Notes: generated by a model not told the origin, from the sequence alone. A stretch of 36,164 nt of DNA from Bacteroidota bacterium (GCA_039196145.1 JBCCUY010000001.1:1-36164), one strand, 5' to 3'; numbered from the stretch's first letter, positions 33,879-36,164 are shown. Program-made: numbers and translations.

Positions 33879-34093
33879 AAATGGTGTGTTTAAAATTATG
33901 AACTGGAGGTAATTTTCCCTGCGAATATGGCTAACAAAGATTCAAAATTGAAACCAGAATCTAAAGCTGCATTTATTAAAACCAGCTCAAAGTTTTTAAC
34001 ACAACATGTTGAAATCTAGGTTGGGAAGTGATGTTTCTTAGGGTTGGGGGTTGTGGTTAAAAGTTGGGATATCCATCCTAATAACCCATGAAT

Positions 34094-34137
34094 AAAAAAA
34101 GACCAAGAAGTATAAAAAAGTATACCTTTTGGCCTTT
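34094..34137 (-). terminator. Intrinsic terminator closing the peptide/structured-RNA unit
   Basis: GGCCAAAAGGUAUA-CUUUUU-UAUACUUCUUGGUC stem (two G-U, one mismatch) followed by U7 on the minus strand. Confidence 0.8.
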
Positions 34138-34154
34138 GTTTTAATGGAAATTGC

Positions 34155-34360
34155 GTTCAGGTCGGTGTCTGTTTGATTACATCACCAAAAGTACGGCCAT
34201 TCCCTGTTCCAATTCCGGAAAGTTGAGCCCTCAGGTAGTTCCCCCGAAACCTAAGAATCAACCGATGCCGTTCATTAACTTGGGATAAATTTTGCAAGCA
34301 GTTTCTAAAATCAAGAGGTTGGTTGCTACGGCCGTACGCTTGTTGGTAATGTATATGAAC
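34155..34360 (-). ncRNA. Candidate structured RNA domain (unassigned family)
   Basis: Long-range stems 34343-34353/34178-34188 (11 bp) and 34328-34337/34191-34200 (10 bp); inner hairpins 34222-34262 and 34207-34220; wobbles are G-U on the minus strand. Confidence 0.55.
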
Positions 34361-34374
34361 TTTTGGTTGGAGTG

Positions 34375-34494
34375 TTATTCGGAAACCGCAACTTTCTCCC
34401 AACCCGATTCTATCTTCAACTCCTTACTCCCTGATACTGCCGTAAAAATCAAAGCGACAATCAACAGAAGAAATAATATTGCGCATTTCTTCAT
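34375..34494 (-). CDS. 39-aa small protein MKKCAILFLLLIVALIFTAVSGSKELKIESGWEKVAVSE (not in ORF track)
   Basis: Hand translation; MKK, then a ~16-residue hydrophobic core and a short polar tail; lies just downstream of a promoter-like element. Confidence 0.6.
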   Translation of the reverse strand: MKKCAILFLLLIVALIFTAVSGSKELKIESGWEKVAVSE

Positions 34495-34531
34495 TGGAGT
34501 AGGGTTTGGCGGTCATTAATTTTGACAAGAC

Positions 34532-34539
34532 CAAAGTAA
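34532..34539 (-). promoter_or_regulatory. Near-consensus -7 element (TTACTTTG) for the small ORF/RNA unit
   Basis: One mismatch to TAnnTTTG; about 30 bp downstream of the LytTR repeats. Confidence 0.5.
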
Positions 34540-34568
34540 AAAACAAATCATCCAGGGAAGTCTGGCTA

Positions 34569-34601
34569 TGTATGAACGGTGCTCTTTTGTGTATAAATGG
34601 T
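34569..34601 (-). promoter_or_regulatory. LytTR-type direct repeat binding site
   Basis: ACCATTTATACA (34590-34601) and ACCGTTCATACA (34569-34580), 21-bp period; ACCGTTCAT fits the LytTR consensus [TA][AC][CA]GTTN[AG][TG]. Confidence 0.7.
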
Positions 34602-34753
34602 TTTTTGGTATTTTAATTTCCTACGAGGCCATAGGAAAATAATTACAGGAAAGGGAAATGCGGCCTGATTTTCCGTAGCGTATCATTTTCTACCGATTAT
34701 ACGTACAAAACATCCATTAACACATAATTTCTATACCTTAATCATATTAATCC

Positions 34754-34761
34754 TAAATTTG
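34754..34761 (+). promoter_or_regulatory. -7 element (TAAATTTG) for the LytTR operon
   Basis: Exact TAnnTTTG 19 nt upstream of ATG 34781. Confidence 0.65.
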
Positions 34762-34780
34762 GTTCTTATTTAAACCGAGC

Positions 34781-35515
34781 ATGTTAGAAGCTGTAATTGT
34801 AGATGATGAGGTCAAGGCCCTGCAAAGCTTAAGTTGGGAGTTGACCAATCTTTCCGATGAGGTGGATATAGTAGCATCCTTTACCGATGCGCATGAGGCT
34901 TTGTCCTATTTAGAGCGTAATACCCCAGATTGTCTTTTTCTGGATATTGAAATGCCGGCAATGGACGGTTTTCAGTTCATCAAAAACTTGAAGAACAAGA
35001 ATTTTCCTGTTGTGATCACCACGGCATACAACCAATATGCACTGAAGGCACTGAAGAACGAAGCTATTGATTACCTTTTAAAGCCAATTGATACGGATGA
35101 TCTGGAGGTGACCATCGAGAAAATAAAGAAGTACAATACCAAAAATCTTACTTCCGAAAAACTGGAGAAAATCCTGTTGAACTTCAATGCGGATTCCCAT
35201 AGCAAAAAGATAACCATAAACACGGATGGGAAACTGTTGTTCCTGAACAGTGATGATATTCTCTATGCGGAATCAGATGGGAACTACAGCACCATTTTCT
35301 TGAGTGATGGACAAAAAATCCTTCTTACCAAGAAGTTAAAAGAGGTGAACAATTTATTGCCAGACAACAGTTTTTTCAGAATTCACAATTCATACATTAT
35401 CAATCTCAATAAGATCAAGGAATTTTTAAAGACCGATGGATATGTGGTCTTGGAATCCAACCATAAAATCCCAGTCTCCCGACAAAAGAAATCCGATTTT
35501 CTGGATATGCTGTAA
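34781..35515 (+). CDS. LytR/AlgR family response regulator (REC + LytTR)
   Basis: VDDE, FLDIEMP, TTAY and YLLKP receiver motifs; FFRIHNSYIIN and PVSR LytTR motifs. Confidence 0.96.
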   Translation: MLEAVIVDDEVKALQSLSWELTNLSDEVDIVASFTDAHEALSYLERNTPDCLFLDIEMPAMDGFQFIKNLKNKNFPVVITTAYNQYALKALKNEAIDYLLKPIDTDDLEVTIEKIKKYNTKNLTSEKLEKILLNFNADSHSKKITINTDGKLLFLNSDDILYAESDGNYSTIFLSDGQKILLTKKLKEVNNLLPDNSFFRIHNSYIINLNKIKEFLKTDGYVVLESNHKIPVSRQKKSDFLDML

Positions 35516-35530
35516 CTCCCACCAAAACCT

Positions 35531-36164
35531 GTGTTCCCTATACGACCTATACCAACCATCCAACAGATTAGCTTCCAAAAGAATACTTCGGTACTTCTTT
35601 TGCTGCTTTTGATGGTTTGGTTTCCGCAAGCACAGGAAATACCTGAGGATTTTAAAGAAAAAACGGAACGGCTCATTCAAATGCGCCCAAAGACTTACCT
35701 TGTCTTAAACACGGAACTTAAATCAGAGAAGAGGGATACCACCTTGTTGCGCTACTTTGCCGATCAATGTGAAGAGAACAATTATTTGGAAGGTCAGGCT
35801 TATGCCCTTGACCATATCGGAACCAAATACCGGAACATTTCCAACTTTAAAAAGGCCGCAGACCTTCATCAAGAGGCTTTGCAAATTGCGGAACAGGCCA
35901 ACAATATTGAACTAAAGGTGTTGAGCTTGAACATGCTCGGTGTGGTCTATAGGCGAAGTGATGCAATCAAAACCGCATTGGATTACAACCAACAGGCCCT
36001 TGAACTTGCCGAGGAAGTACAAAATCCATCCCACCACATCCTCCGGAGCATTAATGTTTCCCTGAACTGTATTGGGGGGCTTTACCAAACCCTAGAGCAA
36101 TACGATTTGGCCATTTTACAGTTTAAAAGAGCCCTAAAGCTAGAGGAAGAATTGGGAAATAAAC
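35531..36164 (+). CDS. TPR-repeat protein, probable sensor histidine kinase N-terminus (partial, runs off window)
   Basis: Open frame from GTG 35531; hydrophobic LLLLLLMVWF; TPRs AYALDHIGTKY, SLNMLGVVYR...ALDYNQQAL, SLNCIGGLYQ...AILQFKRAL; kinase domain not visible, start uncertain. Confidence 0.75.
   Translation, partial: MFPIRPIPTIQQISFQKNTSVLLLLLLMVWFPQAQEIPEDFKEKTERLIQMRPKTYLVLNTELKSEKRDTTLLRYFADQCEENNYLEGQAYALDHIGTKYRNISNFKKAADLHQEALQIAEQANNIELKVLSLNMLGVVYRRSDAIKTALDYNQQALELAEEVQNPSHHILRSINVSLNCIGGLYQTLEQYDLAILQFKRALKLEEELGNK

Follow-up and report, generated by a model that had tools for sequence, protein, structure and literature searches.

In the agr system of Staphylococcus aureus, one of two divergent promoters serves the operon of the regulator itself and the other serves a structured RNA, RNAIII, which reportedly contains a small open reading frame (ORF) and whose loops are C-rich. 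RRNPP receptors are cytoplasmic TPR regulators that bind a re-imported peptide, and MgrB is a mini-protein, encoded in its own regulon, that exerts feedback on PhoQ. To our knowledge the regulatory RNAs of Flavobacteriaceae have been little studied, and literature searches turned up no report of a two-component system of this family that has an RNA output. The agr promoters P2 and P3 carry imperfect repeats 12 bp apart, bound by the LytTR regulator AgrA with the consensus [TA][AC][CA]GTTN[AG][TG] (PMC5600425, partial text); LytTR sites in general consist of 9-11-nt repeats separated by 11-13 nt (PMC5600425 and PMC4847170, both partial texts). The YpdAB and BtsSR systems of Escherichia coli pair a PF06580 kinase with repeats of 9-11 nt and a very small regulon, in which the one target of YpdB is a transporter gene (PMC4847170, partial text). 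Among Bacteroidota, the FimS/FimR system of Porphyromonas gingivalis has a kinase with a periplasmic TPR sensor, for which a protein signal has been suggested, and the available part of that source names no RNA output (PMC5706477). SamT, a further small protein of its own regulon, binds RstB (PMC13425233, partial text).

The locus described here is agr-like in layout but is not a member of the agr family; its place is among the LytS/LytTR systems, with an RNA output of a new kind. It occupies positions 34,094-36,164 of the window, the whole stretch of 36,164 nucleotides from a Bacteroidota bacterium that was analysed (GCA_039196145.1, JBCCUY010000001.1:1-36164). The regulator gene, lytR (34781..35515, plus strand), encodes a protein of 244 aa with receiver (PF00072) and LytTR (PF04397) domains, and its orthologues, 86-98% identical, occur in 23 of 24 other genomes of the genus; the window and these 23 orthologous loci make up the genus set of 24. 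Behind lytR, also on the plus strand, begins a gene for a LytS-type histidine kinase with a TPR sensor (35531..36164); its 5' part is recognized by TPR matches, and the rest is cut off by the contig edge. In a complete orthologue of 655 aa (L190:7102-9069) the TPRs are followed by a hydrophobic segment and then by the kinase domain, which matches PF06580. The preliminary description had expected a HisKA/HATPase kinase: the kinase assignment stands, through PF06580 and a weak HATPase_c match (E 0.009), and the HisKA part falls, since a domain search of this orthologue gave no HisKA match. With the kinase read from the orthologue, a PF06580 kinase adjoins a receiver-LytTR regulator, as in LytS/LytTR two-component systems. 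The best NCBIfam match of the kinase is FimS, at 84 bits against a cut-off of 600, so that by score it is not an orthologue; that of the regulator is BtsR, at 141 bits against a cut-off of 246. The likeness to the E. coli systems lies in the PF06580 kinase, the BtsR-like regulator, the repeats and the very small predicted regulon, and the difference in the TPR-array sensor and in the predicted target, a unit of mini-protein and RNA rather than a transporter gene.

On the minus strand, divergent from lytR, lie in order a repeat pair, a -7-like element, a 39-codon ORF, a foldable stretch and a hairpin followed by U7, each of them at, or at most one base from, the position given in the preliminary description. 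The repeat pair that faces the ORF (34600-34569, minus strand) is a predicted LytTR site with a period of 21. Its proximal repeat fits the AgrA consensus in full, and the distal repeat fits with one mismatch, at the spacing of 12 bp. A degenerate pattern for the pair has two matches in the window and none in 100 shuffles, the second match being a pair that faces lytR (34693..34724, plus strand; period 21, kept in the genus alignment) and is a predicted autoregulatory site, absent from the preliminary description. The RNA-side pair is visible in all 24 loci of the genus alignment. With a matrix trained on these 24 loci, so that some of the scored loci belong to the training genus, 72 of 74 loci show it at period 21 with a score of at least 16, compared with at most 2 at any other period from 17 to 25 and none in shuffles. 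The lytR-side boxes are weaker (at least 16 in 20 of 74 loci), and at no period other than 21 do they reach 16. The own genome, 89% complete, holds just four sites scoring at least 16, with the RNA-side pair ranking first and the lytR-side pair fourth.

The predicted -7 element of the ORF/RNA unit, TACTTTGG (34531..34538, minus strand), was placed by conservation one base from where it had first been put. It has the form TAnnTTnG, lies 30 nt after the boxes and keeps a constant distance from them across loci; from its position, transcription would start near 34526. On the lytR side, 29 nt after the boxes, stands TAAATTTG (34754..34761, plus strand), which we take to be the corresponding -7 element on the consensus TAnnTTTG. 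Paired direct repeats thus stand, as predicted sites, at two divergent promoters, in the manner of agr. Two other box pairs were seen away from the locus. One, scoring 21.9 and accompanied by a -7 element, precedes a 53-aa lipoprotein-like ORF that may be a regulon member or the target of a paralogue (L252:519-769, G000:C70). The other, scoring 22.6, lies 117 nt before a gene for a 443-aa exported protein whose end looks OmpA-like by eye (G000:C53:10411, minus strand; L253:164-1495), and in L243 and L250 a lytR paralogue is followed by a similar gene.

The 39-aa ORF (34375..34494, minus strand), listed as a frame in the preliminary description, is a real small gene under purifying selection. 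It encodes a basic start, a hydrophobic helix and a variable tail. A frame of 39-40 aa is present in 22 of the 24 genus loci, the remaining two having one cut to 22 aa and one degenerate (L011), and among 20 ORFs of equal length dN/dS is 0.14 for codons 2-21 and 0.31 for codons 22-39. Across the 80 loci with long flanks, a profile of the ORF matches 66 at 22 bits or more and 70 at 18 bits or more; it has a single match in its own genome and matches none of 21 loci of a sister clade near the locus. Residues F8, L15 and A18 are nearly invariant and would lie on one face of the predicted helix; the conservation of M1, K3 and C4 was partly imposed by the search pattern. The mini-protein is likely, from its sequence, to be membrane-bound. 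In databases its homologues are listed as hypothetical proteins, and the names assigned to them automatically are diverse. A longer product made by frameshift or read-through was considered and rejected: neither an 81-aa frame nor any of the other frames matches Pfam or is kept in relatives.

The preliminary description had also proposed a peptide-signalling module; in a form like that of agr or RRNPP, the ORF would be a pre-peptide and its exported tail the ligand of the TPR sensor. The signal-peptide-like start of the ORF, the presence of a TPR sensor together with the protein signal suggested for the TPR kinase FimS (PMC5706477, partial text), the divergence of tails among species, as is seen in pheromones, and the tail dN/dS of 0.31 within the genus all speak for such a role. 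Yet total lengths range from 21 to 70 aa, the part past the helix varies between 0 and about 50 residues, 4 of 55 ORFs lack the tail, and no motif is common to the tails; a propeptide of the AgrD type, with a conserved mature part, is absent, as is a kinase of the AgrC type. AgrB (PF04647) gave no match in five genomes, four of them at least 99% complete, in a search in which no control genome passed the cut-off either. The sister clade retains an orthologous kinase and the boxes with no such ORF nearby, and the TPRs, which in RRNPP receptors are cytoplasmic, here precede a hydrophobic segment and a LytS-type kinase domain (in L190). Quorum sensing by this route is therefore improbable. In place of the agr peptide the locus encodes a hydrophobic helix whose tail is dispensable, joined in most lineages by an additional gene for an exported protein.

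Beyond the ORF lies a structured RNA of about 180 nt (34175..34355, minus strand), consisting of two closing helices, side hairpins and an apical hairpin. The foldable region of about 200 nt had been noted beforehand, and the fold is confirmed by its stability (z=-4.4 for 34170-34360, exceeded by 0 of 200 shuffles) and by covarying stems; the match of a model of the RNA spans 34175-34355. The predicted transcript of 435 nt also folds better than shuffles (z=-4.2), and would end at a predicted intrinsic terminator, a hairpin with U7 (34137-34094, minus strand; z=-6.8). The folding agrees with the terminator proposed from the sequence; a simple terminator scan listed none and so missed this hairpin. 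Its stem varies across the genus, and terminator-like hairpins are found in 73 of 117 loci. At the centre of the RNA, the near-invariant core of the apical hairpin, GGTTTCGGGGGAACTACC (34234..34251, minus strand), has a G-rich loop and a 2-nt 3' bulge; taken by itself this hairpin is about as stable as its shuffles (z=-0.4).

A search with the 18-nt core yielded 120 loci from 20 of the 64 parts of a genome collection, or an estimated 390 or so overall, in Flagellimonas, Maribacter, Zobellia, Robiginitalea, Croceitalea, Eudoraea, Arenibacter, Cellulophaga, Pricia and relatives; these loci are preselected by the core, and kin among them are not independent. Pairs were counted in the 95 of 120 loci that could be anchored on outer letters only, 25 being dropped. 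The inner three pairs of the closing helix P2, formed by GTACGGCC (5' arm, 34330..34337, minus strand) and GGCCGTAC (3' arm, 34191..34198, minus strand), are kept in 94, 95 and 92 of the 95 loci, above all of 2,000 shuffles. There, G-U combinations number 47 and A-C combinations 1, which places the RNA on the minus strand. An alignment of 44 sequences contains 57 cells with two-sided change, compared with 17 after shuffling, and the proposed pairs form in 96% of cases, compared with 24-46% for slid controls; the constant columns of this alignment are constant through the selection of loci by the core. Where synteny or the model, rather than the exact 18-mer, was used to find the loci, stem and loop of the core again show few changes, one of which is compensated. 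Such fixed stem and loop letters would suit recognition of shape and sequence together.

The RNA appears to belong to none of the described classes. No Rfam family matched it above chance at gathering and E-value thresholds, and it is unrelated to RNAIII, its loop being G-rich where those of RNAIII are C-rich. Neither 6S-Flavo (RF01685) nor SRP RNA (RF00169) matched, and each of them has a canonical copy elsewhere in these genomes; a second, divergent 6S-like role is conceivable. A sponge RNA of the Csr/Rsm kind was rejected, CsrA being absent from all five genomes searched and found in three control genomes. The accessible literature that was searched gives no account of the RNA. Bacteroidetes motifs reported earlier are mostly in Rfam and gave no match, two that have no accession falling outside the comparison (PMC2864571, partial text). 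Rfp18 of Flavobacterium psychrophilum, a structured RNA from another member of this bacterial family, differs in size, at 97 nt, and in sequence, and supplement file 9 of that study, a source available in part, has no entry with the core word; its large appendix may bear on Rfp homologues (PMC9723704).

The joint conservation of repeat, ORF and structure upstream of lytR orthologues, which the preliminary description had named as a check, was tested and holds across many genera. In 74 of the 80 loci with long flanks a lytR orthologue lies divergent upstream of the RNA. Among 150 sampled genomes of the family, the RNA is present in 23, exactly those with a LytTR orthologue at least 78% identical. 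Outside the family, 150 genomes of the class gave one match, a chance one inside a glycosidase-like ORF, and viral contigs gave none; a further locus, L128, was rejected as a chance 18-mer match inside an ORF. In its own genome the model finds a single copy and no paralogue. The unit has also moved as a whole. In one genome (G146) the RNA, the ORF and boxes scoring 32.6 lie about 490 kb from lytR, which has lost its own outward boxes (score 0.3). Two other loci away from lytR retain boxes (L095, 26.4; L105, 18.4), and a third does so weakly, with the ORF (L141, 7.6). In L095, L105, L141 and L247 the box-ORF-RNA unit, far from lytR, was seen behind a gene that looks hflX-like by eye.

The sister clade carries the same input with a different output. 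Its 21 loci (L222-L242) have LytTR proteins of 56-70% identity, 19 of the 21 keep the boxes and the -7 element, and the two that were checked have a 663-aa kinase that is alike in layout by eye. In all 19 boxed loci terminator-like hairpins are preceded by a short motif that is conserved and non-coding, and the RNA described here is absent. Two candidate sRNA units lie 60-330 nt past the boxes: TGCTATTAATCA occurs in one (14 of 19) and TTAGTTTAGTTAATT in the other (12 of 19). A G-loop hairpin of similar shape occurs in 6 of 19, and one example folds with z=-3.5. A U/G-rich stretch of a sister-clade unit looks similar by eye to Rfp13, Rfp15 and Rfp18 of F. psychrophilum (PMC9723704, partial text). 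The intact relocation of the unit and the retention of the boxes before other units in the sister clade both speak for a regulatory link among the boxes, the ORF and the RNA. The LytTR tree (FastTree) is poorly resolved, and the ordering of events is left aside.

The compact transcript of about 430 nt that had been predicted fits the window but is lineage-specific: in 44 of 74 loci a gene for an exported protein of about 185 aa lies between the ORF and the RNA (for example L045:1683-2231 and L197:6437-7030, both minus strand). This protein has no Pfam or NCBIfam match, and its Atlas neighbours are hypothetical, with a weak lead to DUF6252. Several long spacers contain, upstream of the RNA, a promoter-like site that lacks boxes. 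With the interposed gene and these sites, the RNA may be partly independent of the regulator in some loci. Among the long-spacer loci (L197, L073, L092, L108, L111, L176 and L186) a TATTTTT promoter-like site precedes C-rich sequence with complementarity to the loop, and extra GGGGAAC-like words occur just upstream of or inside the RNA.

It could be asked whether the structure is simply a cis-acting 3' element for stability or processing of the message that encodes the mini-protein and the exported protein, with no role in trans. Its place at the 3' end of the unit, at most 45 nt from the stop of the exported-protein gene in 28 of 44 loci, and its occurrence in single copy would fit such an element. 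However, the RNA persists where the ORF is degenerate (L011) or where there is no room for it (L140, L126), a near-invariant apical hairpin of 18 nt would exceed the usual need of a stability element, and the depth of sequencing described below is concentrated on the hairpin half. A purely cis-acting role is unlikely. Still less probable, to the point of being nearly dismissed, is a leader or attenuator of the nrdBA ribonucleotide reductase operon: nrdB lies downstream on the same strand as the RNA in the window and in 41 of the 80 long-flank loci, but it has a conserved promoter block of its own, and the RNA persists both at loci that lack an adjacent nrdB and in units that have moved. The promoter block itself (about 33930-34015 of the window, minus strand) contains an inverted-repeat-like TCAACA..TGTTAA. 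It is also kept in 14 of 15 genus loci that have no nrdB within 1,100 nt, as an orphan promoter or as that of another gene.

A hint that the RNA is abundant in a relative comes from public sequencing runs, chosen through the RNA core itself; five shared a few words with L186, and four were examined. Two RNA libraries from one study of a relative gave 40 and 31 contigs, nearly all over the hairpin half; such contigs give neither ends, strand nor level. One core contig has a depth of 22,687, compared with 280 for an upstream contig of 1,283 nt in the same run, a comparison made without a silent-stretch control. Over the 5' half of the RNA one run has a contig of low depth and the others have none, a pattern that could stem from processing, from a reference too divergent or from bias in the library and is given no weight here.

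The preliminary description had likened the RNA to RNAIII and VR-RNA; in an action of that kind its G-rich loop would pair with C-rich stretches of mRNAs or other RNAs. Besides the loop itself, this action is favoured by the ordinary-looking short RNAs that stand behind the same boxes in the sister clade, 6 of 19 with a similar G-loop hairpin, and by the loop-complementary C-rich stretch behind a promoter-like site in L073, L092, L108, L111 and L197, which are kin. Against it, words complementary to the loop are not in excess upstream of 2,813 crudely called genes, and C-runs after -7 elements are commonplace (14 of 506). The best duplex, at -27.5 kcal/mol, was equalled or beaten by 7 of 12 shuffles in the one genome examined, so that no target beat its shuffles, and the letters of the stem are fixed as strongly as those of the loop. 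Base-pairing regulation is a possibility that we consider doubtful, though less so than any of the other alternatives. Protein binding is favoured over it because the sequence is fixed in the stem as well as in the loop and none of the targets rises above chance.

These considerations suggest a scheme for the whole unit. The TPR/LytS-type kinase would switch on the LytTR regulator by phosphorelay, and the regulator would bind the boxes of 21-bp period, both steps being drawn from knowledge of the LytS/LytTR family. From the RNA-side boxes it would drive one divergent transcript, holding the mini-protein and the structured RNA, and through the weaker lytR-side boxes it might regulate its own gene. 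A constrained ORF and a conserved RNA structure would then be borne by one predicted transcript, as is expected of a dual-function sRNA. The closing helices could serve to release or to stabilize the RNA. By analogy with MgrB and SamT, the mini-protein is likely to act as feedback on the kinase; the likeness lies in the predicted role and in the place of the gene in the system's own regulon rather than in any demonstrated relation of sequence. Through its near-invariant G-loop hairpin the RNA would probably bind a protein, as a decoy whose partner is left unnamed because CsrA is absent from the five genomes.

Matters of observation are the boxes, the constraint on the ORF as a coding sequence, the covariation and strand of the RNA, and the joint inheritance of all three; beyond them, we hold it quite probable that a regulator-driven transcript exists and that both of its products are functional. 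The full reading, in which that transcript yields a membrane mini-protein and a protein-binding decoy RNA, we regard as evenly poised. Tentatively, and with a good deal less assurance, one may go further and see here a new class of highly abundant non-coding RNA in marine Flavobacteriaceae, which would be cut out of the message for a mini-protein that modulates the kinase and would titrate a global regulator in organisms without CsrA, the RNA output being a swappable cassette for which the sister clade has unrelated RNAs.

The unit is present in single copy in an estimated several hundred genome records from algae- and sediment-associated genera. This single copy, the sharp definition of the operator and the very small size of the predicted regulon make it open to direct tests. 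Should the decoy reading prove true, the RNA would be bait for a post-transcriptional regulator yet to be named. An agr-like layout assembled from different parts, and the exchange of the RNA output between sister clades, bear on the evolution of such circuits.
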